A stretch of 24,000 nt of DNA from Vibrio pectenicida (GCF_003937805.1 NZ_RSFA01000009.1), one strand, 5' to 3'; positions 3,805 to 24,000 are shown, counted from the first letter of the stretch. Notes: generated by a model from the letters alone, not told the origin. Made by a program: numbers and translations.

Positions 3805-3845
3805 AGTTTGAAATCTGTCACAAGACATTGCTTGAATTTCAAACT
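3805..3845. promoter_or_regulatory. Perfect 10-bp inverted repeat upstream of the orphan gene (operator or RNA hairpin candidate)
   Basis: agtttgaaat (3805-3814) and atttcaaact (3836-3845) are separated by 21 nt that contain a nested tgtc..gaca palindrome. The repeat sits 33 nt upstream of ATG 3878. Confidence 0.4.
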
Positions 3846-3877
3846 TGATTACGTATCTTTACACAATAAACCACTGT

Positions 3878-4825
3878 ATGGATGAACAGTTGAAGGGAAC
3901 TAAATTACAATTTCACTACTATTTTAATGATAATTCTCATGCTATGGATGCCATTATACGCAACCAGTGCGAAATTGAGATCCTTTCAATACTTTATGAA
4001 ATCGCAAATATACTCGATGCTCCTATCAAGATAGAAAGTGAAGCACATCAAGAAGGAGGATTACGTGATATTTGGAAGTTAGCCAATGCTAACGCTGGGG
4101 TTTTATCTGTCATTGTCGCAGTCGCTTCGATTGCCATACCCTTATTACCCAAATCAGATGCAGAATTAGAACGGCTGCAAAAAGAAGATTTACACCTTAG
4201 CATCCAAGAAAGAAAACTGAGAATACAAGTTCTTAAACAACAGGTTAACACCAAAGAAGTAGAGGCAGAAACGATTGAAAAAATGGTCGACTTGGTTAAT
4301 GGTAATTATAAAATTATTACACGTCGCTCCAATCTCTTTAAACACTTATGTGCTTACCCCAAAGTTACCAAAATCGGCATTAATGAGCTTAACTGTAATG
4401 GTATACCTGCAACTCCTGAGTCTCTAATTTTACGCTCTGCGTTTAAAAAATTTGTACTACCTTCTCATAAACTTCCAATACGAACCGTTGATAACGCCAT
4501 AATTGAAATCATCGCTCCCGTAATCGGCCAAGGTACATATAAGTGGAAAGGAATATGGCAAGGCCAAAATATCAATTTTTCTATGCGTGATAAATGCTTC
4601 ATACCAGATGTCTTAAACCAGAAAATGAGCTTTACAAGTGGTTCGAATATCCGATGTATCCTAAGTGTGCGATCTAAGCTGGATCACATCGGAGATATTG
4701 TTATTACAGGTTACTCTGTAGAGACTGTTCTTTCCTTTGGCATTGATGAAACACCACAAAGTAGAGTGCATCGCCATCAAAGTAACTTAGAAAAAGCGCA
4801 GGGCGATCTCTTTGCAAGTAGTTGA
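3878..4825 (+). CDS. Hypothetical single-pass membrane protein (orphan, AT-rich)
   Basis: A 315-aa open frame from ATG 3878; the track's TTG at 3845 lies inside the inverted repeat. It has one hydrophobic helix (GVLSVIVAVASIAIPLLP), a charged coiled-coil-like stretch (AELERLQKEDLHLSIQERKLRIQVLKQQV) and a beta-rich C-terminal half. No family recognised. A long ORF in visibly AT-rich DNA is unlikely to be chance. Confidence 0.65.
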   Translation: MDEQLKGTKLQFHYYFNDNSHAMDAIIRNQCEIEILSILYEIANILDAPIKIESEAHQEGGLRDIWKLANANAGVLSVIVAVASIAIPLLPKSDAELERLQKEDLHLSIQERKLRIQVLKQQVNTKEVEAETIEKMVDLVNGNYKIITRRSNLFKHLCAYPKVTKIGINELNCNGIPATPESLILRSAFKKFVLPSHKLPIRTVDNAIIEIIAPVIGQGTYKWKGIWQGQNINFSMRDKCFIPDVLNQKMSFTSGSNIRCILSVRSKLDHIGDIVITGYSVETVLSFGIDETPQSRVHRHQSNLEKAQGDLFASS

Positions 4826-5398: not shown

Positions 5399-6400
5399 CT
5401 ACTCAATAGAATTTTCATCTTTAAGGCTCCATTTGTGGTAGATTTCCCTGATCTCATCCTCTAGGCCTAAAAAAATCTCTACTAAATCTGGATCAAAGTG
5501 TGAACCAGAATTATTTTTAATTTCAATCAGCGCTTCTTCTATTGACCAAGCTTTTTTGTAAGGTCGCTCCATAGTCAGAGCATCAAACACATCGCAAATC
5601 GCTACAATCCTTGCACCTTGTGGTATCTGTTGACCCACTAAACCTTCAGGATATCCGGTACCATCCCAACGTTCATGATGCGATTTTGCGACGTCTGCGC
5701 CTAATTGGAATACAGGGTTAGAAGACATAGATAATATTTCGTGTCCAATCTCTGAATGTTTCTTCATAACCACCCATTCATCATCATCCAACCCTCTTGG
5801 GGCTTTTAGAATCGCATCAGGTATGCCGATTTTACCAGTGTCATGTAATGGTGCGGCTAGCTCCAACCGGTTATAATTTTCATAATCCCAACCCACAGCT
5901 TTAGCTAATAATTTACAATACTCCGCCATACGCCAAATATGGCTGCCAGTATCGGTATCGTTATAGTGACCAGCGACACCCAGCATTCGAATTGCTGATA
6001 GCGCCAAGGAATCGACTTCAGCCAACCGTGTCAGTGAGAGGTGAGTCGCCACACGTCGAAGTACAATAGCTGGAGAGAATGGCTTCGTAATATAATCGAC
6101 GGCTCCTAGGTCAAAACCCATTGACTGATCGTCGGTATCATCCTTGGCAGAAATAAAAATAACAGGAATATGAGAGGTCTCAGGGTTACGCTTTAGCCTG
6201 CGGCAGACTTCAAAGCCATCCATATCTGGCATCATGATATCGAGTAAAATAATATTAGGTTGAGGAGATGTACTGGCCAGCTTTAACGCTTTCTCACCAT
6301 TTGTTGCAGCTCTGACCGAGTAATTTCCTTTCTCCAGTACACTTTTTAGAATACGGATGTTATCCGGCACATCGTCAACAACTAAGATAGTTTTGTCCAT
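5399..6400 (-). CDS. Response regulator with HD-GYP output domain (RpfG-type c-di-GMP phosphodiesterase)
   Basis: REC domain: ILVVDDVPDN, phospho-acceptor context LLDIMMPDMDG, ITKPF. HD-GYP domain: LHDTGKIGIPD, HHERWDGTGYPEGL. The start lies 14 nt after the kinase stop. Confidence 0.93.
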   Translation of the reverse strand: MDKTILVVDDVPDNIRILKSVLEKGNYSVRAATNGEKALKLASTSPQPNIILLDIMMPDMDGFEVCRRLKRNPETSHIPVIFISAKDDTDDQSMGFDLGAVDYITKPFSPAIVLRRVATHLSLTRLAEVDSLALSAIRMLGVAGHYNDTDTGSHIWRMAEYCKLLAKAVGWDYENYNRLELAAPLHDTGKIGIPDAILKAPRGLDDDEWVVMKKHSEIGHEILSMSSNPVFQLGADVAKSHHERWDGTGYPEGLVGQQIPQGARIVAICDVFDALTMERPYKKAWSIEEALIEIKNNSGSHFDPDLVEIFLGLEDEIREIYHKWSLKDENSIE

Positions 6401-6414
6401 ACTTATCTCTTACT

Positions 6415-9159
6415 TTATCCTTGTAGGCTGGATAACATTGTATCCAAGCATTCTAGCGCTTCATCACTGTCATATATTTCAACAGCGTCATTCAAACGGT
6501 CAATTTGATCAGCTTTTACATGTCCTTGTATCATTGCGATTAGATTAGCTATGCTATCCTCTTCAAATTCCCCCAATTCAAGTTGCTCCCTAATCTCTGC
6601 ACTAAGAGCTATCACAACTTTACAGTCAAATTCCTGAGCTTGTACAAGCGACACTTCTGGCTGAAGACCGATTAAAGCAATCGACTCTAGTACTTGCTGT
6701 AATGCCGATGAGAGTTCGTTCCATGATTCAGAAATATCTTGGTCCTGTAACTTAAAAGCTTGCTCAAAAGTAAAGGCAACTTGAGATAAACGATGCGCGC
6801 CTAAAGAGGCAGAAGCTCCCTTCAAGGTATGGGCTGTAATTTCACCTTGTGAATAGTCTTTATCTGCCCATGAGGTTTTCAAATCGCTGAATGTACTTTG
6901 GTTATTTTTCGAAAAGCTATTGAGAAGTTTGGTGAACAGTATTCTATCATCATTGACTCTGGAGAGCCCTTCTTCAACATCAATACCAGGTAACTCCGGA
7001 AATGCCACATTATCTGCAACGTCATCACTTTGCTGTGGAGATGCAAACTCAAAATTGTCATCTTTGAATTTCGGATCGATCCACTTAAGTAACTTACTGT
7101 AAAGCTCACTGGTATCTATCGGTTTAGCGATATGGTCATTCATACCTGCTTCAGCGCATCGCTCTCGATCCTGTTGCATCGCATTAGCCGTCATAGCAAT
7201 GATAGGAAGCTCTCTTTGAGTGGGTTGTTCCCGAAGTACTCTTGCAGCCTCCAAACCATCCATCACTGGCATTTGTAAATCCATTAAGATGATGGCAAAC
7301 TTCCCATCAAGTGCCTTATCTACCCCTTCTTTTCCGTTGTTGGCTACTTCAACATTAAGGCCAACACTTTCAAGGAGCTCTATAGCGATAATTTGGTTAA
7401 CTTCATTATCCTCCACCAAAAGTACTGGTGCCCCACGAACTGTAGCAAAACTATCGTATAAGGCTTCACTCTCATTATTCTGACTTGAACTGTCAGAAAC
7501 CACAGCCTTACCCATAACCTCCATAACAGTATCCAGCAGCGCTGAAGCACTAACAGGTTTCACCAAGAAACCATCAATTTTTGCTTCAGACGCTTGGAGA
7601 ACGACTTCTTCTCTTCCATATGCGGTCATTAAAATAATTTTCGGGGGGCAATCAAGTGTCTTAATAATTTCAGATGCCTTAATACCATTCATTTCTGGCA
7701 TTTGCCAGTCCATTAAAACAAGCTCATAAGGACTGTCCTCAGCCATTGCTTTCTTAACCATATCAATGGCTTCAAATCCATTCACTGCGGTTGATATTTC
7801 AAGAGAGTAGGAATTAAGGAGTTCTTGGTTAATATCGCGGGCGCTTTTATTGTCATCAACGACGAGCGCTTTCATACCTTTGAGCTTTTTCCAATTGTAG
7901 ACACGCTCTTGCTGGTTCTCGATTTCTTTATCAAGAACACCAAACTCAGCGGTAAAGATAAAGCTACTCCCTTCTTGATAAACACTTTCTACCCAGATAT
8001 CACCATTCATCAGGTGCACCAAGTTCTGACAAATACTTAGGCCTAAACCAGTACCTCCATATTTACGAGTAGTTGAAGTATCGGCCTGGCTAAACGCACT
8101 AAATAGCTTTTGTATCTGTTCTGGCTTTAAACCTATACCTGTATCTTTGATCTCAAACTTTAATTTAACCCATTCGTTTAACTGCTCACAATTTGTGACT
8201 TTAACAATGATATCTCCTTGCTCAGTAAACTTGATTGCGTTATTGCAAAGGTTAGTGAGTATTTGACCAAGACGTAAAGGATCCCCAACCAACGAGTTGG
8301 GCAACTCTGGAGGAGTCGAGAAAATGACTTCCAATCCCTTTTCTTGTGCTTTTAGGGTAATTATTGTACATAAATCATCAAATACCTTATCAAGTTGAAA
8401 CGGTATTGACTCCATTTCCATTTTACCCGCTTCAATTTTAGAGATATCAAGAATGTCATTAATAATGCCCAACAATGCACGACCTGCTGAGTTTATTTTG
8501 CTAATGTAATCATGCTGCTTTGACGTCAATTGAGTCTTTAAAACAAGTTCACTCAGACCAATAACCGCATTCATCGGGGTACGTATTTCATGGCTCATAT
8601 TGGCCAAGAAATCACCTTTTGCCACATCTGCTTCTTTGGTTTTTTCTAAAGATATCTCTAATTCACGCATCAATTCTTGCTGCGAGAGCTGATTAAGCTT
8701 ATTACGTTGAATATCAACGTGTTCTTTAGGATAAAAGTTAGGATTGGGAAAACGTTTAAATGCCGTCAGCTTGTGTGAATGGTTACTCGCCGTCTCGACC
8801 GTAAAATAATCAAAAATGTAATCGTAATTCATTGACGTAACAGAACCGACTGCACTGTTAAGCTCAAGTTCAATTCCCCAGAGGTCAGCATTGCGAGAAA
8901 AAAAAAGTGCAACATTAAAACTGTCACAAGTGGATAAAAAGTTGTGACAAACTTCCGAAACAGCAGTCGCCAATCGCACTGAATTTACCCTAGAAAACTG
9001 ACAGTCTAGCGCAAGCCTTTTTACCTTATTTCTAAAATCAACAATAGATGGGCTATCTTCAATGCTGTATTCAGCAAGCTTAATGCTGCCTTCCTTAGAC
9101 GCTTGCTCCATTTCTTTTATGACGGTTTCGAGATTCATAGTCCATGTCCGAGTTCTCAA
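6415..9159 (-). CDS. Soluble hybrid sensor histidine kinase: RsbT-like degenerate N-domain, coiled coil, HisKA, HATPase_c, REC, REC, Hpt
   Basis: H-box SHEIRTPMNAVIG. N, G1 and G2 boxes NLCNNAIKFT, DTGIGL, GGTGLGLSI. REC1: VVDDN..LMDWQMPEMNG..VKP. REC2: LVEDNEVN..LMDLQMPVMDG..AKP. Hpt: HTLKGASASLG. No transmembrane segment is evident. TTG 9159 overlaps the rsbX stop (TTGA); the first ATG is at 9138 (MNLETV). Confidence 0.92.
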   Translation of the reverse strand: MRTRTWTMNLETVIKEMEQASKEGSIKLAEYSIEDSPSIVDFRNKVKRLALDCQFSRVNSVRLATAVSEVCHNFLSTCDSFNVALFFSRNADLWGIELELNSAVGSVTSMNYDYIFDYFTVETASNHSHKLTAFKRFPNPNFYPKEHVDIQRNKLNQLSQQELMRELEISLEKTKEADVAKGDFLANMSHEIRTPMNAVIGLSELVLKTQLTSKQHDYISKINSAGRALLGIINDILDISKIEAGKMEMESIPFQLDKVFDDLCTIITLKAQEKGLEVIFSTPPELPNSLVGDPLRLGQILTNLCNNAIKFTEQGDIIVKVTNCEQLNEWVKLKFEIKDTGIGLKPEQIQKLFSAFSQADTSTTRKYGGTGLGLSICQNLVHLMNGDIWVESVYQEGSSFIFTAEFGVLDKEIENQQERVYNWKKLKGMKALVVDDNKSARDINQELLNSYSLEISTAVNGFEAIDMVKKAMAEDSPYELVLMDWQMPEMNGIKASEIIKTLDCPPKIILMTAYGREEVVLQASEAKIDGFLVKPVSASALLDTVMEVMGKAVVSDSSSQNNESEALYDSFATVRGAPVLLVEDNEVNQIIAIELLESVGLNVEVANNGKEGVDKALDGKFAIILMDLQMPVMDGLEAARVLREQPTQRELPIIAMTANAMQQDRERCAEAGMNDHIAKPIDTSELYSKLLKWIDPKFKDDNFEFASPQQSDDVADNVAFPELPGIDVEEGLSRVNDDRILFTKLLNSFSKNNQSTFSDLKTSWADKDYSQGEITAHTLKGASASLGAHRLSQVAFTFEQAFKLQDQDISESWNELSSALQQVLESIALIGLQPEVSLVQAQEFDCKVVIALSAEIREQLELGEFEEDSIANLIAMIQGHVKADQIDRLNDAVEIYDSDEALECLDTMLSSLQG

Positions 9160-9734
9160 TTAACTCGGATGACTAGGCAAGTTGCATCATCTGATGCTTT
9201 TGCAAATTTCCGAGTAATATTTTGGGCGATAGTTTCAGCATTATCAGTATAGATGCTCGGGTAATCTTTTGGATCAAAATTACTCATGATTCCATCAGAA
9301 TAAAGGATCAATATTTCTCCAGGTACAAGTTGAACTGTATTTTTGACTGGTGTCCGTATTTGATAACCAAGTACACCTTGCTGGCAGATAAACCTTTGAA
9401 CTTCCTTACCAACTTTGCACATGAATATATTGCCAATACCCACGTAATCAAAACGCAATGAATTTATATCTAAATTAGCAATAATGGCAACGCCACCATT
9501 CGTGCTGCGCAAATTGTTGTGTAATTGTTCCATTAGCACGGGCAGATCTGTCTGGTACGATTGTTTCAAAAAGCTTCTTGTTGTACTGGCAATACTATGA
9601 GCACTTTTCCCATGACCAGCACCATCGAACAAGCTAATAAAATAGTCATTTCCATTCTGCTGATAAAAAGCATCATCCCCATTGACTTCTTCAAGTGGTT
9701 TTTCACCTATCGCTATCTCAATTTTTTCAGCCAT
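9156..9734 (-). CDS. rsbX: RsbX-like PP2C/SpoIIE-family serine phosphatase
   Basis: About 192 aa, similar in length and motif order to B. subtilis RsbX: GDDAF, FDGAGHGKSA, ILYSDGI, DDATCLVI. ATG 9734 overlaps the rsbT stop (TAATG) with AGGAAA upstream. An alternative in-frame ATG is at 9746. Confidence 0.85.
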   Translation of the reverse strand: MAEKIEIAIGEKPLEEVNGDDAFYQQNGNDYFISLFDGAGHGKSAHSIASTTRSFLKQSYQTDLPVLMEQLHNNLRSTNGGVAIIANLDINSLRFDYVGIGNIFMCKVGKEVQRFICQQGVLGYQIRTPVKNTVQLVPGEILILYSDGIMSNFDPKDYPSIYTDNAETIAQNITRKFAKASDDATCLVIRVN

Positions 9735-10135
9735 TATCTGCGCCATTTCCTTACCGTCACTTCAGTGCCAACACCAATTTCTGTTTCTATTTGCAGTGAA
9801 TCCATTAATCTCTGAGTGCCCGGTAAGCCAACCCCCATAGTACCGTGTGTACTGTAATTATCACTCAACGCTTTTTGCACATCATGTATACCGCCACCAC
9901 TATCTTTGGCAACGATTTCAACTCCAGTTCTGGTCTCATCTTCTAGATATTTTAAATACAACACTCCATGACCAGCATGATTAAGAATATTACGTGTCAG
10001 CTCACTAACTGCTATTGAAATCATGTATTGATCGACTGTCGAAAACCCAAGTTTTAGAGCAAACTTTTTCGCGTCTAAGCTAGCGTATCCAACGTCAGAG
10101 TCAGTCGCTATGTCTATTTTAATAATATTATCCAC
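9734..10135 (-). CDS. rsbT: RsbT-like stressosome serine kinase (anti-sigma-factor-type HATPase_c_2)
   Basis: 133 aa, the same length as B. subtilis RsbT and collinear with it: LGFSTVDQ, N-box IAVSELTRNIL, G1 DSGGGI, G2 GVGLPG, C-terminal VRKWRR. The GTG start has GGAGG 11 nt upstream. Confidence 0.9.
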   Translation of the reverse strand: MDNIIKIDIATDSDVGYASLDAKKFALKLGFSTVDQYMISIAVSELTRNILNHAGHGVLYLKYLEDETRTGVEIVAKDSGGGIHDVQKALSDNYSTHGTMGVGLPGTQRLMDSLQIETEIGVGTEVTVRKWRR

Positions 10136-10193
10136 TCCTGAGCCAACCTCCGATTCAGAAATAAAAGGGACTCACTCTACATTCTTAATAGTT

Positions 10194-10571
10194 TTATTTC
10201 TGATAATTGAGTAGGTAATCTAAAGCCTCCTCCATATTCCTTTTAGTCTTTAGATTGCTGGTATCCATATTGGAATCTATCATCGAAGCAATAATACCAG
10301 GACTTAAGCCAGTTACTGCGGTATGAGAGCCCATAACTTGAATCATATTGGCCGATTTGGTGAAAACATCCCACAGAGAGCTATCAACAATATCTACCCC
10401 AGAAAAATCAATAATCACACCAGCCACATGACGAGAACCTAGTGTATCCAAAATAACTTCTTGAACTCTTTTAGCATCCTCAATAGACAATTCATCTTGT
10501 ATAGGGACAATCAAGCAACGACTCATGTTATGAGTCACCACTTTGATCATGTTTTCTGCGGTGCTACTCAT
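10194..10571 (-). CDS. rsbS: RsbS-like single-domain STAS scaffold protein
   Basis: STAS fold signature with the phosphorylatable Ser context GVDIVDSS (cf. B. subtilis RsbS VDMIDSF) and TGLSPGIIASM. ATG 10571 has AGGA 8 nt upstream and overlaps the rsbR stop (ATGAGTAG). The ORF track extends to 10595. Confidence 0.87.
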   Translation of the reverse strand: MSSTAENMIKVVTHNMSRCLIVPIQDELSIEDAKRVQEVILDTLGSRHVAGVIIDFSGVDIVDSSLWDVFTKSANMIQVMGSHTAVTGLSPGIIASMIDSNMDTSNLKTKRNMEEALDYLLNYQK

Positions 10572-12135
10572 GCCATGATTCCTGATGTTCATCACTTTGG
10601 ATCAGTGTATAACCGGCAATTTTGAACGAGTTGTTAACTCCCTCTTTTAGGGTAGACTGAGTGACAACATCATTTAACTCAATGCCAAGATTAACTATCG
10701 CTTGAGCAACCACGGGAGAAATACCTGTCACTATACAAACACATCCCATAAGCCGCGTTGCTTTAGCAACCTTCAAAAGGTGATTTGCTACAGCACTGTC
10801 TACTGTAGGGACACCTTGTATATCTATCACTATCACCCGCGCTTCATAGTCGATAACTTTTTGTAATACGGCTTCCATAATCATCTGGATCCGGTTTGAA
10901 TCAATTAAGCCAATCACTGGTAACATCAATACTTTATCCCATAGCTGCATCACTGGAGTCGACATCTCCATTATCATCGATGCCTGCTTAGCTCGTTCTT
11001 CAGACATTTTTTTTCTATCAGTAATATCTGAAGCCACTTTGAGTACTTTGTATGGCTCACCTTTGAGATCTAACACTGGATTATAAGTTGCTTGAATAAA
11101 GACCTCGCGGCCATTTTTGGCAATACGTTTAAATTCTCCTGAAATAAACTGGCCTGCGCCGAGTTCACGCCAAAATTCTCTGTATTGCTCTGTTTCACTG
11201 TATTCTCGCTCACAAAATAGCCTATGGTGCTTACCTTGAATTTCTGCAAGGTTGTATCCCATAAGATCCAAAAAGTTTTGGTTGGCGGAAATAATGGTCC
11301 CGTCGAGATTAAATTCTATTGTGCCAAGCGATTTATCAATAGCATCAGCTTTAGCCTGCGCTTCATTACTAACCGTTTTATATTCTGTGATGTCTGAGGC
11401 AACCTTCAGTACTTTAACTAACTTGCCCTGCTCGTTGAATACAGGATTGTACGTTGCTTGAATAAATACTGTTTCTCCATCTTTGGTAACACGAATATAT
11501 TCACCGGAACTAAATTCACCTTTGCCAAGGCTATCCCAGAATTGGCTGTACTCCACACTCTGTCGGTATTGATCTTCACAAAAAATCCTATGATGCTTTC
11601 CTTTGATTTCATCAAGAGAATAATGCATTAAATCGAGAAAATTTTGATTGGCCGTGATAATGGTACCGTCTAAATTAAATTCAATGGTAGCTAATGATTT
11701 GTTTATAGCTTCAGTATGAGCTTTTGCCTTTAGACTGATAAGTTTGTTCTCAGTAATATCTGTCGCTACCTTGATTACTCGAATGGGCTTACCATTGCCA
11801 TCAAATACAGGGTTGTAAGTCGCTTGAAGGTAAATTTCATTACCACTTTTGGTCACTCGTTTGTACTCACCAGAATCAAATTCACCAGCACCTAAATTAT
11901 TCCAAAAATCTTTATAAGCACGACTTCGAGCATAGGTTGGTTGAACAAAAATCCTATGATGCTTTCCTTTGATTTCATCAAGCGTGTAACCAACAACATT
12001 TAGGAAGTTCTGATTCGCGTTAAAGATGGTCCCATCGAGCTCAAATTCTATTACTCCCTGAGACCTGTGAATTGCGTTGTACACGCTCTCGTATAATGCT
12101 GACTCATTATCAAAACCTTTGTTTGTTTTCTTCAT
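10564..12135 (-). CDS. rsbR: RsbR-like stressosome sensor: three tandem PAS domains plus a C-terminal STAS domain
   Basis: AAGGAG lies 5 nt upstream of ATG 12135 (MKKTNKG); the track's upstream extension to 12198 is probably non-coding. Three 122-aa units each carry IEF.LDGTI..AN.NFL...GY.L.EI.GKHHR.F...Y and ATYNPV....G......KVA.DIT. The C-terminal STAS resembles the RsbR C-terminus: VIDIQGVPTVDSAVANHLL, IVTGISPVVAQAIVNLGIEL. Confidence 0.88.
   Translation of the reverse strand: MKKTNKGFDNESALYESVYNAIHRSQGVIEFELDGTIFNANQNFLNVVGYTLDEIKGKHHRIFVQPTYARSRAYKDFWNNLGAGEFDSGEYKRVTKSGNEIYLQATYNPVFDGNGKPIRVIKVATDITENKLISLKAKAHTEAINKSLATIEFNLDGTIITANQNFLDLMHYSLDEIKGKHHRIFCEDQYRQSVEYSQFWDSLGKGEFSSGEYIRVTKDGETVFIQATYNPVFNEQGKLVKVLKVASDITEYKTVSNEAQAKADAIDKSLGTIEFNLDGTIISANQNFLDLMGYNLAEIQGKHHRLFCEREYSETEQYREFWRELGAGQFISGEFKRIAKNGREVFIQATYNPVLDLKGEPYKVLKVASDITDRKKMSEERAKQASMIMEMSTPVMQLWDKVLMLPVIGLIDSNRIQMIMEAVLQKVIDYEARVIVIDIQGVPTVDSAVANHLLKVAKATRLMGCVCIVTGISPVVAQAIVNLGIELNDVVTQSTLKEGVNNSFKIAGYTLIQSDEHQESWHE
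10999..12099 (-). repeat. Intragenic tandem triplication, 366-nt period (the three PAS modules of rsbR)
   Basis: The protein repeat period is exactly 122 aa. The 36-nt string aaaaatcctatgatgctttcctttgatttcatcaag is identical at 11581-11616 and 11947-11982 (offset 366). The third copy at 11215-11250 matches 28/36. Confidence 0.85.
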
Positions 12136-12411
12136 GACCACTCCTTGGATTGATTTCACCCAACAAAAATACCTAAACAACTCGATGGTAATAATCAATC
12201 AACTATAGAAGAAGGTCGCAAAAACAGCCCACCTAAAATCTAATCATCAGTAAATAAAAATAAATATCTTCGCGCATTACTTAGTGCACAAATTACAACT
12301 TTTCTTTTGTTTAAGTACTTGATACACCAATAAGTTACTACTGTATTTTGGCAAAATTGACTATTCTTAAAGTAAACCAGTGCGATGCGAAAGAATAATA
12401 GGAATAATTCA

Positions 12412-13803
12412 ATGGCTCAGGATAACTACAACAAGCTTTCTGACGGTGAACTTGAGTATGTGGATGATAAAACTGCCGCGCTATTATTAAATACTCCCAG
12501 TAGTGCACGTATAATGCTTTGGGTGATGGTACTCTTTTTAATCCTAGCGGCAGTCTGGGCTTCATGGGCAAAAATAGATAAAGTTACTGTTGGAGAAGGC
12601 AAAGTGGTCCCCTCTTCTCAAGTACAAATAGTGCAAAACCTTGAGGGGGGACTTGTTAAGGAAATCTTAGTTCGTGAAGGTCAATCAGTTCAAAAAGGCC
12701 AGCAACTACTTTTAATTGATGACACGCGTTTTCGGTCCGACTTTCGCGAACGTGAACAACAAATAGCTAACCTAACCGCAAGCGTTTTACAGTTGTCTGC
12801 TTCCATGACCAGCGTCACCGTCAATGAAAAAAATGACCAAAAATCTTGGAAAAAAAGAGTCGAAATCAACTTCAACAAGCTAGCCTTCCCTCCTTCTTTG
12901 GCTGAAAGACAACCGCGGCTGGTCGCCAGACAACGCGCCGAGTACCAACAAGACCTTAATAATTTAAGTAATCGTCTCTCAGTGATTGACCAGCAAGTAA
13001 AACAAAAACAACAAGACTTGGTTGAAATCCAAGCTCGTGTGGAAAACTTACGTGATAGTTATAACTTTGCCCGCAAAGAGCTTGAAATAACTCAACCGCT
13101 CGCAGACGAAGGGGTAGTACCGCAAATAGAACTATTGAAATTACAAAGACAGGTTAATGACACACAAAGAGAAATGACCTCAAGTGAACTTAAAATACCA
13201 GTATTAAAGTCGGCCATTCAAGAGGCCATGCTAAATCGTATTGATGCTGCCCAGAAATTTCGCTCAGAGCAACAGGAAAAGCTCAACCAAGCTCAGGATA
13301 AACTCTCTTCACTTACTGAATCCAGTGTAGGCTTAGAAGATAGAGTAAACCGAACCATCGTCATTTCACCCGTGATGGGAACCGTTAAAACACTCAATGT
13401 TAATACCGTAGGTGGCGTAATACAGCCAGGTATGGATATAGTAGAAATAGTGCCTAGCGAAGACACTCTGCTCGTTGAAGCAAAAATTGCCCCACAGGAC
13501 ATTGCTTTTTTGCGGCCAAACTTAAATGCCATTGTTAAATTTAGTGCTTACGACTTTACTAAATATGGTGGACTAGAAGGCAGTCTCGAACACATTAGTG
13601 CTGATACCACAACAGATGAAGAAGGAAATAGCTTTTATCTTGTAAGAGTAAGGACCAAAGAAACTAGTCTTAACAATGATGCATTGTTACCCATCATACC
13701 TGGTATGACAGCATCAGTGGATATAATTACAGGCAAGAGAACGGTTATGGAATATTTACTTAAGCCGATTCTCGGTGCCAAAAATAACGCATTAAAGGAA
13801 TAA
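12412..13803 (+). CDS. lapC: Type I secretion membrane-fusion (periplasmic adaptor) protein, HlyD family, LapC-like
   Basis: Short cytoplasmic N-tail, one TM helix (IMLWVMVLFLILAAVWASWA), a long coiled-coil middle and a C-terminal barrel with typical HlyD strings (VISPVMGTVKTLNV, GGVIQPG, IVEIVPSEDTLLVEAKI.PQDI, PGMTASVDIITGKRTVMEYLLKP). AGGA lies upstream of ATG 12412; an alternative ATG is at 12385. Confidence 0.9.
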   Translation: MAQDNYNKLSDGELEYVDDKTAALLLNTPSSARIMLWVMVLFLILAAVWASWAKIDKVTVGEGKVVPSSQVQIVQNLEGGLVKEILVREGQSVQKGQQLLLIDDTRFRSDFREREQQIANLTASVLQLSASMTSVTVNEKNDQKSWKKRVEINFNKLAFPPSLAERQPRLVARQRAEYQQDLNNLSNRLSVIDQQVKQKQQDLVEIQARVENLRDSYNFARKELEITQPLADEGVVPQIELLKLQRQVNDTQREMTSSELKIPVLKSAIQEAMLNRIDAAQKFRSEQQEKLNQAQDKLSSLTESSVGLEDRVNRTIVISPVMGTVKTLNVNTVGGVIQPGMDIVEIVPSEDTLLVEAKIAPQDIAFLRPNLNAIVKFSAYDFTKYGGLEGSLEHISADTTTDEEGNSFYLVRVRTKETSLNNDALLPIIPGMTASVDIITGKRTVMEYLLKPILGAKNNALKE

Positions 13804-13848
13804 ATATGCTCAATACTCGACTCAAACATTCGTCTAAAATGTAGCGCA

Positions 13849-14511
13849 ATGAAGTTCTGGCTTTCTATCCTCGTGATAATTTTAGTTTCAACGGCTTCAA
13901 AAGCACTCAACACCCAAGAGCAGCGTTGGGTAGAAGCAGTTCGCAAAACTTATGGAGAGCGAGCAGGAAAGAGGGTAGAAACTTGGCGTCGAGAAATGGT
14001 GCAATTTAAAGCAATTTCAGAAAAAGAAAAGTTGGTCAAAGTAAACCGTTTCTTCAATCAACTAAACTTCGTTAATGACGATCGCCTCTGGGGCAAAAAG
14101 GATTATTGGGCCACACCACTTGAATTTCTTGGCAGTAATGGTGGAGATTGTGAAGATTTTACGATTGCAAAATATTTTTCATTACTTGAGCTTGGGGTCT
14201 CGGACAGAAAGCTGAGGCTGGTTTACGTTAAAGCAATCTCATTAAACCAGTTCCATATGGTATTAGCTTACTACTCGAAACCAAGCGCAGAACCCATTTT
14301 GCTCGATAATATTGACCCACAAATAAAAAGAGCCTCAAAACGCAGAGATTTATTACCAATTTACAGCTTCAATGGTAAAAACTTGTGGCTAATGAAGTCG
14401 AAAAAAGGACAGCTGGCAGGGAAGTCATCAAGACTTAGTTTATGGAATGATCTCAGAGCCAGAGAAAAATCACTCAAATTGAATAAACCAATTTTAAATT
14501 ACGATGAGTAA
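13849..14511 (+). CDS. lapG: LapG-like periplasmic transglutaminase-like cysteine protease (BTLCP/DUF920)
   Basis: Signal peptide MKFWLSILVIILVSTASKA. Nucleophile context GGDCEDFTIAKY, then His (FHMVLAYY) and Asp (LLDNID), matching the C-H-D triad order of the LapG family. It sits next to a LapD-type receptor. Confidence 0.88.
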   Translation: MKFWLSILVIILVSTASKALNTQEQRWVEAVRKTYGERAGKRVETWRREMVQFKAISEKEKLVKVNRFFNQLNFVNDDRLWGKKDYWATPLEFLGSNGGDCEDFTIAKYFSLLELGVSDRKLRLVYVKAISLNQFHMVLAYYSKPSAEPILLDNIDPQIKRASKRRDLLPIYSFNGKNLWLMKSKKGQLAGKSSRLSLWNDLRAREKSLKLNKPILNYDE

Positions 14512-14516
14512 GCAAT

Positions 14517-16427
14517 ATGACTTTATATAAACAACTTGTCGCGGGAATGATAGCAGTATTTCTGATGCTGATGGTCTCCGTCTTCATCATCGAATTTAAC
14601 ACAACGCGAAATAGCTTGATTCAACAGCAGCGTTCAGAAATGAACAATACTATTAACACCGTTGGCCTTGCCTTAGCCCCCTACCTTGAGAGCAAAGATC
14701 AAGTCGCCGTAGAATCTGTGGTTAATGCTCTATTTGATGGCAGTACCTACTCCATTGTTCGATTGATTTTTTTAGATAATGGTGAAGAAATCATACGCTC
14801 CTATCCCGTTAAACCACTCGACGTACCGGACTGGTTCACCAATCTTAATTTATTTGAACGCATTCACGATCGCCGAGTCGTCACCAGTGGTTGGATGCAA
14901 CTCGCAGAGGTTGAGATAGTCAGCCACACTGGGGAAGCCTACGCCCAGTTGTGGAATGCCTTCTTACGGCTACTTGTTGCGTTTAGCATCATTTTTTCCA
15001 TTGGTTTATTATCGATTGCTTTTATTCTCAAGCGCGCATTACGTCCGTTATTGCTGATAGTAACCAAGATGGAACAAGTCGCTAAGAATCAATTCGGCGA
15101 CCCATTACCTATGCCAAAAACCCTAGATCTTATTGCAGTGGTTGAAGGAATAAATAGTATGTCAACGCAAGTTGAGCAGTCTTTCAAAGCTCAAGCAAAG
15201 GAAGCTCAACAACTTAGAGAACGCGCCTATATTGATCCAGTATCTGGGCTTGGTAACCGCGCTTACTACATGAACCAACTCAATGCATGGCTTGGAGAAA
15301 GTGGAGTAGGAGGCGTCGCTATCCTTGAAGCACATTTTCTTACTGAAATTTATGAGGAGAAAGGATACAAAGAAGGAGACAGTTTAGTAAAAGAACTTGC
15401 TAACCAACTCAGCGTTGCACTCAACTCATCTGAAATGACTATTGCGCGAATTTCTAATGAAGAATTTGGCTTCATTATGCCTAATATGGATGAGGGAGAA
15501 CTAAAATCGATTTCGGAGGGCATTGTTAATTATGCTCATGGGACCAATGCAGATCCGACAGGAATGGCCAAATCAAATTTAGCTCTAGGCGTGGTGTATA
15601 ACGAAAGTAATAAGAGCACCTCTGATATTCTGACGATGCTGGACAACGCTCTTGCAACCGCAAAATCTGATCCAGAAATCAATTATGGCTATGTCACTAG
15701 CGATAACTCAGAGAATCTAATGGGTAAGCAGCAGTGGAAAACACTGGTTGAAGAAGCGATGAGCAATGATTGGTTTAAATTCCGTTATCAAGCAGCTAAT
15801 GATGGCTCAGGCAAGACTTATCATCGCGAAGTTTTCTCCGCAATAGAAAGGGATGGGGAGAGGTTCAGCGCCAATCAATATATGTTTGCATTAGAACAAC
15901 TTCATGCCAGCCATATATTTGATGAGTACGTAATAGAAATCATGGTATCTCAACTTGAAAATGGCGTATTCTCAGACCCAGTCGCTATCAATATTTCTCA
16001 AAGCAGCATTGCTGAACCAAGCTTTATCCGCTGGATCGGCCAAGTCTTAGGCAAACATAAATCTGCTGCAGCTCTTTTACATTTTGAAATACCTGAAAAC
16101 TGCTTTGTCAATACACCACACCATACTGCTCTTTTCTGTAATGCCGTCAGGAGTGCAGGGGCTGATTTTGGTGTAGATAATTACGGTCGAAATTTCCAGT
16201 CTTTGGACTATATCAACGAATTCAGACCTGCTTATGTTAAAGTTGATTACTTGTATACACATCATTTAGATGATGAAAATCAGAAGTTTACCTTAACTTC
16301 CATTTCACGAACTGCACACAACCTTGGTATAAAGACCATTGCATCGCGAGTTGAAACACAAGCCCAACTTGATTTCTTGGCTGAACATTTTATCGATGTA
16401 TTCCAAGGTTTTATTGTAGATAAGTAA
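14517..16427 (+). CDS. lapD: LapD-like inner-membrane c-di-GMP receptor (periplasmic LapD_N domain, HAMP, degenerate GGDEF, degenerate EAL)
   Basis: Two TM helices flank a roughly 125-aa periplasmic domain carrying the GW loop (TSGWMQ, W126). A HAMP-like segment follows. The GGDEF-domain start is DPVSGLGNRAYY, but the signature is SNEEF rather than GG(D/E)EF. EAL-domain signatures are degenerate: EVF for EAL, DNYG for DDFG, ASRVE for EGVE; QGF is retained. Confidence 0.87.
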   Translation: MTLYKQLVAGMIAVFLMLMVSVFIIEFNTTRNSLIQQQRSEMNNTINTVGLALAPYLESKDQVAVESVVNALFDGSTYSIVRLIFLDNGEEIIRSYPVKPLDVPDWFTNLNLFERIHDRRVVTSGWMQLAEVEIVSHTGEAYAQLWNAFLRLLVAFSIIFSIGLLSIAFILKRALRPLLLIVTKMEQVAKNQFGDPLPMPKTLDLIAVVEGINSMSTQVEQSFKAQAKEAQQLRERAYIDPVSGLGNRAYYMNQLNAWLGESGVGGVAILEAHFLTEIYEEKGYKEGDSLVKELANQLSVALNSSEMTIARISNEEFGFIMPNMDEGELKSISEGIVNYAHGTNADPTGMAKSNLALGVVYNESNKSTSDILTMLDNALATAKSDPEINYGYVTSDNSENLMGKQQWKTLVEEAMSNDWFKFRYQAANDGSGKTYHREVFSAIERDGERFSANQYMFALEQLHASHIFDEYVIEIMVSQLENGVFSDPVAINISQSSIAEPSFIRWIGQVLGKHKSAAALLHFEIPENCFVNTPHHTALFCNAVRSAGADFGVDNYGRNFQSLDYINEFRPAYVKVDYLYTHHLDDENQKFTLTSISRTAHNLGIKTIASRVETQAQLDFLAEHFIDVFQGFIVDK

Positions 16428-16444
16428 CAAGGTTATAGCCGTAC

Positions 16445-18559
16445 ATGCAAGATCCTTTACTCAATTCACTCATATACATCAGTCGATATTTTGGTTTAGC
16501 TAATTCGCCTGAAGCACTAATTAATGGTTTACCATTGTCCTCAGGGAAACTAACACCATTTCTTTTCCCTCGAGCAACCGAACGTGCAGGTTTAATCGCT
16601 AAGGAAAACCGTTCTAACTTGACAGACATCTCAGAGTTAGTATTACCGGTCGTCTTACTCCTTAAGGATGGAGATGCCTGTGTATTAAACACCATTAACT
16701 TAGAGAAGCAGGAAGCTGAAATTGTGACTGGGGAATCAGGCCTAGTGCCTACTGCTGTATCATTGGAAGAACTCAATGAGCTCTATATTGGCCGTTATTT
16801 CCTAGTTAAAAAGCAGTTCCGATATGATGAACGCTCGCCCGAGATACTAAAGACCCGAGAAGGGCATTGGTTCTGGAGCACGTTGTGGCAGTCAAGAAAT
16901 ATCTACAGAGATGTATTTATTGCCTCGATACTGATTAACATGTTCGCAGTTGCTGCCCCCATGTTTACCCGCTTAGTCTATGACAAAGTTGTTCCAAATT
17001 TAGCTTTTGAAACACTTTGGGTGCTGGCTAGCGGTATCTTTGCAATTTTTATATTTGAACTGACACTAAAAATTCTTCGTAGCTACTTTATCGATGTCGC
17101 TGGCAAGAAATCTGACATTTTAATCTCATCAAAAATATTTAGTAAAGTACTAGGAATTCGAATGGAAGCAAGGCCTCCATCTGTTGGCGCTTTTGCTAAA
17201 CATTTACAAGAATTCGAATCAATTCGAGAATTTTTTGCTTCCGCGACAATTGGCTCCTTAATAGATTTACCATTCGCTCTTCTATTTCTTTTATTAATCT
17301 GGTTGATGGCAGGCAGCTTAGTCATTATACCGATTATAGGTGTATTGATTTTAGTGATTTACTCAATAATCATACAAGGGCCACTGAAACGTTCCATTGA
17401 AGAAGGCTCACGTTTAGCATCACAAAAATATGCCAATCTCATTGAGAGCTTATCTGGCCTAGAAACTCTCAAACTTTTCGGTGCACAAAGCCAATTTCAA
17501 TATAAATGGGAAGAAGCTGTTGCTCATATGTCCAAATGGAGTATTAAAAGCAAACGTATTACAGATGGAATCCACAATACCGCCGGCTTTGTTCAACAAG
17601 CATCCAACATTGGCATGATCATTCTCGGTGTCTATTTAATTGCTGATGGCGAGCTAACAATGGGCGGACTCATTGCAGCAACCATGCTTAGTAATCGTGC
17701 CATTGGCCCTATGGTTCAGCTCTCATTGCTTTCTACACGTTACAATCAAGCAAAATCCTCTTTGGCTATTATTGAACAAATCATGGCAATGCCAGATGAA
17801 CAAGAAGAAGGTAAACGTTATATACATCGCCCCATTGTTAAAGGTAAAATTGAATTAGATAAAGTTACCTTTAACTACCCAGATGCCCCTATCGCTTCAA
17901 TACGAGATTTAAGTCTCACAATCAATCCCGGTGAAAAAGTCGCGATCATTGGCAGAATAGGATCTGGTAAAACCACACTTGAGCGTCTAATACTTGGGCT
18001 TTATAAACCTACTGAAGGCCATGTTCGTATCGATGACACTGATATCCAGCAACTGCACCATATCGATATCAGGCGTAATATCGGCTGTGTGCCTCAAGAC
18101 AGTCAGCTGTTTTATGGGTCCATACGAGACAATATCACGCTTGGACGACCTCTCGCCGACGACCGAGATATTATGGATGCAGCCAATCGTGCTGGAGTCA
18201 CTGTCTTTACTCAACAAGATCCAGCAGGATTGGAACGACAAGTTGGCGAGGGAGGTTTACTTCTTTCTGGAGGTCAGCGCCAGGCAGTTACTATCGCACG
18301 TGCATTTTTACATAGACCACCTGTTTTACTGATGGACGAACCTACCAGTGCAATGGATAATCGCTCTGAGATGCAAATTAAACAGCAACTTTCTCAGCTA
18401 AAAAAATCTGAAACTTTGGTTTTGATAACCCATAAAACGTCCATGTTGGAAGTGGTTGATCGAATAATAGTTATGGAAAAAGGCACTATTATTACCGATG
18501 GTCCAAAAGCTGAAGTTCTCAATAACCTTAGGCAAGGCAACATTCGCGCTGTAAATTAG
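16445..18559 (+). CDS. lapB: Type I secretion ABC transporter (ATPase/permease) with N-terminal C39-like domain, LapB/HlyB-type
   Basis: The N-terminal ~130 aa resemble a C39 peptidase-like domain but lack a catalytic Cys near the N-terminus. A six-helix ABC membrane domain follows. Walker A GRIGSGKTT, signature LSGGQRQ, Walker B LLMDEPTS, H-loop ITHK. Confidence 0.92.
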   Translation: MQDPLLNSLIYISRYFGLANSPEALINGLPLSSGKLTPFLFPRATERAGLIAKENRSNLTDISELVLPVVLLLKDGDACVLNTINLEKQEAEIVTGESGLVPTAVSLEELNELYIGRYFLVKKQFRYDERSPEILKTREGHWFWSTLWQSRNIYRDVFIASILINMFAVAAPMFTRLVYDKVVPNLAFETLWVLASGIFAIFIFELTLKILRSYFIDVAGKKSDILISSKIFSKVLGIRMEARPPSVGAFAKHLQEFESIREFFASATIGSLIDLPFALLFLLLIWLMAGSLVIIPIIGVLILVIYSIIIQGPLKRSIEEGSRLASQKYANLIESLSGLETLKLFGAQSQFQYKWEEAVAHMSKWSIKSKRITDGIHNTAGFVQQASNIGMIILGVYLIADGELTMGGLIAATMLSNRAIGPMVQLSLLSTRYNQAKSSLAIIEQIMAMPDEQEEGKRYIHRPIVKGKIELDKVTFNYPDAPIASIRDLSLTINPGEKVAIIGRIGSGKTTLERLILGLYKPTEGHVRIDDTDIQQLHHIDIRRNIGCVPQDSQLFYGSIRDNITLGRPLADDRDIMDAANRAGVTVFTQQDPAGLERQVGEGGLLLSGGQRQAVTIARAFLHRPPVLLMDEPTSAMDNRSEMQIKQQLSQLKKSETLVLITHKTSMLEVVDRIIVMEKGTIITDGPKAEVLNNLRQGNIRAVN

Positions 18560-23328: not shown

Positions 23329-23357
23329 AACAGCCAGTGTATTAAGCGCTGGCTGTT
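23329..23357. terminator. Hairpin between convergent yccT-like and HD-GYP genes
   Basis: Perfect 9-bp arms aacagccag (23329-23337) / ctggctgtt (23349-23357) with an 11-nt loop. The right arm overlaps the last codons of the minus-strand gene. There is no clear T-run on either side. Confidence 0.35.
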
Positions 23358-24000
23358 GCTTGCTCTGCTGTTGAAATAAAATAGCATTCTTGGCTATTTT
23401 CTTGTAAGCAATCGAATACTAGCTGGTCTAATTTACCATCCTCAACCAAAGCACGTATAATTTGTAGAGCCTCATTAATAGTTAGACCCTGACGATATGG
23501 TCGAGATTGAGTCAAAGCTTGAAAAACATCGCCAATCGCAATAATTCGGCTCGGAAGATCAATATCATTCGCCGACTTTCCTAGCGGGTATCCAGAACCA
23601 TCAAGTCTTTCATGATGATTCGCAGCCCATTCAACAATCTGGCTTGACTGAAAAATATTCATCAAGGTATGCCGAGTATCTGTGGCATGACGTTTAATAC
23701 ACGCATATTCCTGTTTGGTTAAATCTGTCGGTTTATGAAGCACAACTGACGGGGTTTTCAATTTACCTATGTCGTGAACTAACCCAGCTAAATACAACAT
23801 ACGTTGTGCTTTAGCTGAAAAGCCGAGCTTTTTGCCAATAAAGGCGCTGAGGCGAGCGACTTTACGTGAGTGCTGGCAGGTGAAAGGGCTTTTGGTATCG
23901 ACAATCTCTGCAAAAAGTTCGGCGACTGAAATCGAGTTTTCTAACCCCATTCGCGCAGCAAAAAAAGGCACACTCGGGAAGCGACTCGCCATAGTCTCAA
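23342..24000 (-). CDS. HD-GYP domain protein (c-di-GMP phosphodiesterase family), probably truncated at its 5' end by the window edge
   Basis: HD motif VHDIGKLKTP and HHERLDGSGYPLG. The frame remains open upstream of the ATG at 23992 to nt 24000, so an N-terminal sensor or REC domain may lie outside the window. Confidence 0.85.
   Translation of the reverse strand, partial: ETMASRFPSVPFFAARMGLENSISVAELFAEIVDTKSPFTCQHSRKVARLSAFIGKKLGFSAKAQRMLYLAGLVHDIGKLKTPSVVLHKPTDLTKQEYACIKRHATDTRHTLMNIFQSSQIVEWAANHHERLDGSGYPLGKSANDIDLPSRIIAIGDVFQALTQSRPYRQGLTINEALQIIRALVEDGKLDQLVFDCLQENSQECYFISTAEQATASA

Follow-up and report, generated by a model that had tools for sequence, protein, structure and literature searches.

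How stressosomes transfer their signal outside the SigB paradigm of Bacillus and Listeria is a question that has stood open since about 2005. Among Gram-negative bacteria, Vibrio vulnificus has been studied best; there VvD1 and VvD2 form a two-component system that is predicted to degrade cyclic di-GMP (c-di-GMP) (Heinz et al. 2022, PMC9237108; Cutugno et al. 2023, PMC10014275). Signalling from the stressosome to such outputs is unresolved: no interaction between RsbT and the kinase VvD1 could be shown, and most stressosome-linked outputs do not carry the RsbU_N domain (PMC9237108). An earlier account of the DNA described here, made from the sequence alone (the sequence-only reading), had called the downstream signalling of such modules unresolved as well, in line with this literature. 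A screen of Vibrio proteomes placed V. pectenicida among four species with a complete RsbR/RsbS/RsbT/RsbX set (PMC9237108). In this study we analysed a stretch of 24,000 nt (the window) from V. pectenicida chromosome 2, a 1.195-Mb replicon, in which six co-directional open reading frames (ORFs) on the minus strand, 12135..5399, encode RsbR, RsbS, RsbT, RsbX, a hybrid histidine kinase and a REC-HD-GYP response regulator. Supplementary Data 5 of that screen (Heinz et al. 2022, PMC9237108) lists the RsbR of the window under its UniProt accession, A0A3R9E1U2. The operon type and the module of this species are already known and catalogued; the new part is a family of N-terminal domains, represented here at the start of the kinase, that derives from RsbT itself and that we call pseudo-RsbT.

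The N-terminal domain (N-domain) comprises kinase residues 19-161 (8656..9084, minus strand) and has a degenerate GHKL fold. The sequence-only reading had passed over this 145-residue domain, as it had the divergent LapCGDB-like cluster described below. After the domain come a conserved PDPxFxP motif and a helical linker into HisKA, and across the family a conserved helix, LSRxELxxEL, joins the domain to the effector. Neither Pfam nor NCBIfam holds a model for kinase residues 1-170, the sole Pfam match being a chance hit to LUC7 at E<=1. By eye the family consensus, SIVEARNKIRxLAxDLxF...ATRLATxxSE..., resembles the start of RsbT, and in BLASTP the domain matches the window's own RsbT with an E-value of 2e-5. 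When an alignment of 49 N-domains was compared with one of 14 RsbT sequences in hhalign, the two matched at 96.5% probability (E 8.7e-10) over 128 columns that span all of RsbT, with an 18-residue deletion in the N-domain at the G1-lid-G2 segment of RsbT, the ATP lid. The family HMM also matches, weakly, the neighbouring RsbT in every locus. A sequence profile search of the PDB with the N-domain alignment returned no match, and therefore the homology to RsbT rests on the profile-profile comparison and on the fold. For the latter we used an AlphaFold2 model built on the 49-sequence alignment (pLDDT 88.7, pTM 0.79), since a model from the single sequence was unusable (pLDDT 41). The top 16 Foldseek matches of this model in the PDB were all SpoIIAB, RsbW or UsfX (E 4e-4 to 5e-3, probability 1.0), and no other fold in the PDB came close.

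The residues with which RsbT kinases handle ATP are not maintained in this domain. Among the 49 members the column of the N-box Asn holds S, I, A or L, that of the G1 Asp holds S, G or C, the Gly columns are variable, and the G2 motif is lost as well. Conserved across the family are R36, K38, S61, E62, F109, D110 and the C-terminal FxP motif. Because the N-box and G1 positions that bind Mg-ATP are not kept, the domain is predicted to be non-catalytic, and judged from the alignments and the model it is a degenerate paralogue of RsbT, a pseudokinase. It is also distinct from RsbU_N: Pfam found no RsbU_N on the kinase, and the modelled fold is alpha/beta with six strands, not a helical four-helix bundle. 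A search of the available literature returned nothing relevant on stressosome outputs that carry a domain of RsbT-like or pseudokinase type, although a mention in the Pane-Farre papers of 2005 and 2017 is possible.

The domain occurs well beyond V. pectenicida: phmmer, run exhaustively against 1.84 billion cluster representatives, retrieved 68 family members at E<=1e-3, and 20 of these reach E<=1e-10. In nearly all of them residues 2-145 are matched; a word-indexed protein search with the same domain found one fragment only. HisKA is present in 51 of 64 N-domain proteins, while others carry SpoIIE, GGDEF, EAL, a nucleotide cyclase or HD_5, and in some members a PAS domain is inserted between the N-domain and the effector, so that the arrangement N-domain-PAS-HisKA also exists. 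One metagenomic histidine kinase (P0003, 552 aa) bears two pseudo-RsbT domains in tandem, at residues 1-128 and 129-266.

We then sampled the gene neighbourhoods of nine distant members that are 24-36% identical. In eight of the nine the gene with the N-domain stands immediately 3' of an rsbX-like gene, and in seven of these eight a complete rsbR-rsbS-rsbT-rsbX set is found on the contig, the start of the N-domain gene overlapping the stop of rsbX in five of the seven. The eighth locus, with a GGDEF-EAL output, lies on a contig of 2.3 kb on which only the C-terminal fragment of an RsbX-like protein is visible upstream. The RsbR partners at the sampled loci are of both the PAS and the Protoglobin type, and the outputs include a plain kinase, hybrid kinases, PP2C-HATPase_c_2, PAS-PP2C and GGDEF-EAL. 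Some loci with the domain show peculiarities of their own. At a locus with a Protoglobin-type stressosome (L015, 7001-8655) pseudo-RsbT is a separate gene of 183 aa directly 3' of rsbX, and its stop is overlapped by a gene of 369 aa; the arrangement is either a split gene or a free-standing adaptor. At another (L022, 5438-11362) the stressosome genes and a pseudo-RsbT-PAS-PP2C gene are followed by a second partner-switching set with SBP-PP2C, two SiaC, DUF6272, a nucleotide cyclase and two hemerythrins. The metagenomic cassette L007, of the PAS type, has a REC-only regulator of 139 aa (5980-6399) after its hybrid kinase, and for this reason an HD-GYP output is not universal for kinases coupled to pseudo-RsbT.

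The proteins encoded upstream of the kinase are those of a complete stressosome. The sequence-only reading had assigned the four to the RsbR, RsbS, RsbT and RsbX families, and Pfam domains, matches to solved structures and conserved motifs all agree with it; in the six proteins of the cassette every Pfam domain scores above its gathering threshold. RsbR (10564..12135, minus strand, 523 aa; PAS_3 3.6e-50, STAS 1.9e-12) consists of three PAS blocks (12105-11746, 11745-11374 and 11373-11002) and a linker with STAS domain at about 11004-10603. Among the three PAS repeats identity is 53-57%, and their nearest solved relatives are flavin-binding PAS domains, MmoS (8e-10) followed by Aer, NifL and LOV; the position of the LOV photo-Cys reads GKHHRIF. 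Pfam detected no Protoglobin domain in RsbR. It is a reasonable guess from these relatives that the input could be a flavin or redox signal. The STAS part (residues 378-511) is closest to the stressosome RsbR chain 7o0i_B (5e-40), with Listeria RsbR at 1e-29. Ser447 in VPTVDS is a candidate phosphorylation site, which by its motif is taken to be equivalent to T171 of B. subtilis; it is apparently the only one, as there is an Ala at the position of the second site of B. subtilis RsbRA.

RsbS (10194..10571, minus strand, 125 aa) is a single STAS domain (4.4e-10) whose best solved matches are the RsbS chains 6jhk (6.7e-12) and 6qcm. The Ser that had been singled out in its VDIVDSS motif is Ser64, and it aligns with the phospho-Ser of VDMIDS in B. 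subtilis RsbS (6jhk); the conserved phospho-Ser of RsbS is Ser59 in B. subtilis. RsbT (9734..10135, minus strand, 133 aa, GTG start) is a GHKL serine kinase (HATPase_c_2 1.1e-9) with intact N-box (SELTRN), G1 (KDSGGG) and G2 (GVGLPG), as the sequence-only reading had stated, and E45, N49, G80, G82 and G103 occupy invariant or near-invariant columns in an alignment of 14 RsbT sequences. A relative that is 47% identical carries the JGI name RsbT. RsbX (9156..9734, minus strand, 192 aa, or 196 aa from an ATG at 9746) is a single-domain PP2C phosphatase: the SpoIIE match (7.8e-13) spans residues 32-195 of the 196-aa form, no further domain is present, and the metal-binding motifs FDGAGHG, YSDGI and SDDATC can be recognised.

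The kinase (6415..9138, minus strand, 907 aa, or 914 aa from a TTG at 9159) has the architecture HisKA-HATPase_c-REC-REC-Hpt in Pfam. On the minus strand, HisKA lies at 8622-8425 with His183 in the H-box SHEIRTP, HATPase_c at 8286-7948, REC1 at 7872-7504 with Asp477, REC2 at 7425-7093 with Asp620, and Hpt at 6927-6685 with His770 in HTLKG; the two REC Asp residues stand in LMDWQMP and LMDLQMP. Pfam found no PAS domain in the kinase, and a Kyte-Doolittle scan (maximum 1.27) revealed no transmembrane segment. The kinase ends in about 85 acidic, probably helical residues without a domain match (about 819-907; 6415-6684, minus strand). The response regulator (5399..6400, minus strand, 333 aa; Response_reg 2.1e-29, HD_5 1.2e-32) shows Asp54 in LLDIMMP, HD at 186-187 and HHERWDGTGYP at 241-251. 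Relatives in the same 90% cluster bear the UniProt name RpfG-type c-di-GMP phosphodiesterase, and from its motifs we infer that the regulator is a phosphodiesterase of this type. The soluble hybrid kinase and the REC-HD-GYP protein are thus as they had been described.

All six genes are co-directional, as first noted, and most of the proposed junctions could be reproduced. rsbR and rsbS overlap by 8 nt, ATGAGTAG, as read from the sequence; a gap of 58 nt separates rsbS from the GTG start of rsbT; TAATG is common to the stop of rsbT and the start of rsbX; and kinase and regulator are 14 nt apart. rsbX and the kinase share TTGA if the kinase starts at TTG, whereas with the ATG start, which is the public gene call, the gap between them is 17 nt and not 18 as given before. 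The six-gene arrangement is far beyond chance, and the genes are probably co-transcribed. Upstream of rsbR a divergent intergenic region of 249 bp (12136..12384) separates it from a lapC-like gene and is the presumed site of both promoters; a consensus scan of this region showed no convincing sigma-70 site. The statement that no sigma factor and no RsbV, RsbW or RsbU is encoded nearby also held: among the 19 large ORFs of the window Pfam detected no sigma-factor domain and no additional STAS or HATPase_c_2 domain.

The cassette is conserved in the same order in at least seven further genomes. The surrounding 20 kb are syntenic in V. hepatarius, V. tetraodonis, V. aquimaris, Vibrio sp. Of14-4, a Vibrio metagenome-assembled genome and a second V. 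pectenicida strain; an RsbT-based scan of genome contigs yielded four close loci only. Psychromonas aquimarina has the same six-gene cassette with a 3xPAS RsbR and an RsbT that is 54% identical, but there it stands in an unrelated neighbourhood, and therefore the conserved unit is the cassette. A comparison of neighbourhoods had been suggested as a check, and the rsbRSTX-kinase-regulator order is indeed kept in both genera.

As a proxy for V. vulnificus we used the globin-type locus of Vibrio sp. THAF64 (L018). It encodes a Protoglobin-STAS RsbR, RsbS, RsbT, RsbX, a hybrid kinase of 1057 aa that contains PAS, and a REC-HD_5 regulator. The kinase core of the window is 43.5% identical to its THAF64 counterpart, and the regulators are 39.7% identical over the full length. 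The sequence-only reading had regarded the locus as a distinct variant in both sensor and output. This stands for the sensor, three PAS domains in place of a globin, but not for the HD-GYP output, which is common to both Vibrio cassette types (VvD1/VvD2 being a further instance) and hence does not distinguish them. The PLSDB entries pTHAF100_a and pTHAF64_a (L017, L018 and L020), 'plasmids' of 1.3-1.85 Mb, are second chromosomes of Vibrio and almost unannotated, and CP031730.1 (L019), labelled as a Stenotrophomonas rhizophila plasmid, contains a Gram-positive-style rsbT-rsbU-rsbV-rsbW-sigB operon and looks mislabelled or like a contaminant.

We consider it fairly probable that the locus is a sigma-factor-independent stressosome cassette of the Vibrio type in which the N-domain of the kinase receives the stressosome signal and a phosphorelay passes it to the REC-HD-GYP regulator. 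RsbR, with its three flavin-type PAS domains and STAS, would form together with RsbS a STAS core of megadalton size that sequesters RsbT. Upon a signal, probably redox- or metabolite-related, RsbT would phosphorylate RsbS at Ser64 and RsbR at Ser447, and RsbX would reset the system. The signal could then enter the hybrid kinase via pseudo-RsbT and the helical linker to the DHp helix, with the N-domain serving as a docking site for a stressosome component, either released RsbT, in a pseudo-dimer as in SpoIIAB and RsbW, or the STAS core. Docking might shift the linker and so alter the balance of kinase and phosphatase activity; the coiled-coil-linker model offers a plausible route from a binding event to the DHp helix (Baral et al. 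2025, PMC12143880). Phosphate would travel from His183 to a REC Asp, to His770 of Hpt and finally to Asp54 of the regulator, with c-di-GMP hydrolysis as the outcome. The binding partner, the direction of regulation and the enzymatic activities in this scheme we infer from sequence. We propose that on outputs without RsbU_N it is the N-domain that takes in the stressosome signal. A broader claim would be that pseudo-RsbT is a general, previously unrecognised adaptor that couples rsbRSTX to outputs without RsbU_N by partner switching, be it through released RsbT in a pseudo-dimer or through RsbT-type sites on the STAS core. This we put forward tentatively, as nearly as apt to prove right as wrong.

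Several observations weigh against this proposal. One member of the family (P0033) has no rsbRSTX genes nearby. The N-terminus of the THAF64 kinase is collinear with the N-domain family but reaches only 5.9 bits and an hhalign probability of 18%, and as this is no significant match the domain may not explain signalling in V. vulnificus. Promoter and terminator scans were uninformative for co-transcription, with fewer sigma-70-like sites than in shuffled sequences. The partner of the N-domain is assigned from homology and gene neighbourhood, and it stays a putative one. Finally, the ATP lid contributes to STAS binding in SpoIIAB-SpoIIAA structures, and its deletion in the N-domain may therefore impair docking to STAS. 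As a lead in the opposite sense, the invariant Arg of helix 1 would argue for a partner-binding surface that has been kept: in a gapless alignment made by hand, Arg36 presumably corresponds to Arg20 of SpoIIAB and, in B. subtilis RsbT, to the DIVAAR Arg.

Other ways of connecting the stressosome to the kinase can be envisaged. The kinase might dock on the STAS core through pseudo-RsbT and be freed or activated once RsbT has phosphorylated RsbS and RsbR, so that RsbT itself never touches the output. GHKL anti-sigma kinases do bind STAS proteins, as in the solved SpoIIAB-SpoIIAA, RsbW-RsbV and UsfX-RsfB complexes, and the match of Arg36 to SpoIIAB Arg20 would fit as well, as a lead and not a test. 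This arrangement would further explain why no RsbT-VvD1 interaction was detected (PMC9237108), but VvD1 is at most a putative relative of the N-domain family, and the 18-residue lid region that the domain has lost is the one that faces the STAS phospho-site in kinase-STAS complexes. On balance we regard docking of this exclusive kind as rather unlikely. A second possibility, which combines the sequence-only reading with a suggestion of Heinz et al. 2022 (PMC9237108), is that RsbT, once released, targets the kinase itself with no dedicated receiver, for example through transient Ser/Thr phosphorylation; the N-domain would then be a dimerisation domain or an independent sensory domain. Its lack of nucleotide-binding motifs leaves it without an obvious enzymatic role and would suit such a function. 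Yet descent from RsbT would be unexpected for a generic sensor or dimerisation domain, and so would the position directly after rsbX that eight of the nine distant members share in spite of their different outputs, and we think it unlikely that the connection works in this manner. It is very improbable that the two-component genes are merely functionally independent neighbours of rsbRSTX with no signalling link: the phenotypes of V. vulnificus RSTX and D1 mutants overlap only partly (PMC10014275), but Vibrio and Psychromonas keep the six genes as one block although the surrounding genes differ, only 14-17 nt lie between genes, and a domain derived from RsbT sits on the first downstream gene across many phyla-level metagenomic loci.

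If pseudo-RsbT is indeed a general adaptor, it would resolve how Gram-negative stressosomes signal, and it may be the missing link between stressosomes and outputs other than sigma factors. The presence of the domain on the first gene after rsbX, in many lineages and with many output types, offers a concrete and directly testable hypothesis of coupling. The domain would, moreover, be a further case from bacteria in which a pseudo-GHKL fold has been put to new use as an adaptor in signalling. Neither the operon as such nor the lowering of c-di-GMP predicted as its output is unusual in this group of Vibrio.

Divergent from rsbR lies a LapCGDB-like cluster (12385..18559, plus strand). It comprises an HlyD/LapC-like gene (12385-13803; HlyD_3), lapG for a BTLCP protease (13849-14511; Peptidase_C93 5e-13) that is 47% identical to an annotated LapG of P. 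aeruginosa, lapD for a c-di-GMP receptor (14517-16427; LapD_MoxY_N 2.4e-36 with GGDEF and EAL) and lapB for an ABC exporter (16445-18559; ABC_membrane and ABC_tran). The Lap system is a c-di-GMP-controlled machinery for adhesin retention; neither an adhesin substrate nor a TolC-like gene was found in the window. An HD-GYP output beside a c-di-GMP receptor is suggestive of biofilm release with Lap as the local target, on circumstantial grounds. We have downgraded this link because the adjacency is absent at the Psychromonas cassette and because in Vibrio sp. THAF64 the orthologous Lap cluster is 855 kb away from the stressosome cassette; it is kept only in the group of V. pectenicida, V. hepatarius, V. 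aquimaris and V. tetraodonis. A search of the available literature for a link between stressosome and LapD gave nothing relevant. At the far end of the window (23342-23992, minus strand) a stand-alone HD_5 (HD-GYP-like) protein of 216 aa, whose ORF ends 8 nt from the window edge, adjoins a DUF2057 gene, and the same pair occurs beside a Lap-chitinase cluster in Vibrio sp. THAF64 (L020) with 70% and 75% identity. Two plus-strand ORFs, 3845-4825 (326 aa) and 179-577 (132 aa), have no Pfam match and recur, with 69-99% identity, at the corresponding place of every related Vibrio locus. Neither an Rfam nor a tRNA scan of the window gave a hit.

Compared with known systems, the locus is nearest to that of V. 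vulnificus and V. brasiliensis (Jia 2016, Heinz 2022, Cutugno 2023), with which it shares gene order, kinase architecture, the REC-HD-GYP protein and the lack of a sigma factor, and which also provides the closest solved relative of its RsbR STAS (7o0i, 5e-40). The sensor there is a haem globin, whereas here it is a 3xPAS array of the flavin-PAS clade; the globin-type Vibrio kinase carries PAS, whereas the kinase of the window has none and starts with a clearly recognisable pseudo-RsbT; and RsbT is 42% identical between the two. With the SigB pathway of B. subtilis and Listeria the locus has in common the STAS core of RsbR and RsbS, the N, G1 and G2 boxes of RsbT, the feedback PP2C RsbX and the phospho-Ser of RsbS. 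RsbU, RsbV, RsbW and SigB of that pathway are missing here, rsbX directly follows rsbT, and the RsbU_N four-helix bundle of the output has no counterpart on the kinase. The hybrid kinase with REC and Hpt paired with REC-HD-GYP recalls RpfC/RpfG of Xanthomonas, and UniProt names the two proteins RpfC-like and RpfG-like; RpfC is a membrane-bound sensor of DSF, whereas our kinase is soluble and predicted to be fed by a stressosome. For the N-domain itself, the best structural matches are SpoIIAB, RsbW and UsfX, from which helix 1 and the Ser-Glu remnant of the N-box are kept. Those proteins stand alone, whereas the N-domain is fused to effectors, has lost the N-box Asn, G1 and G2, and lacks about 18 lid residues. 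A parallel is offered by the outputs with RsbU_N, such as the diguanylate cyclase MtG of Moorella thermoacetica and the proteobacterial RsbU_N histidine kinases (Baral et al. 2025, PMC12143880), in which an N-terminal domain, a helical linker and an effector likewise follow the stressosome genes. There a partner-binding N-terminal domain is joined to a dimeric effector, and in the pseudo-RsbT family outputs are exchanged as modules in the same way (kinase, PP2C, GGDEF). RsbU_N is a helical bundle, whereas pseudo-RsbT is a degenerate GHKL domain with an alpha/beta fold that stems from RsbT itself.

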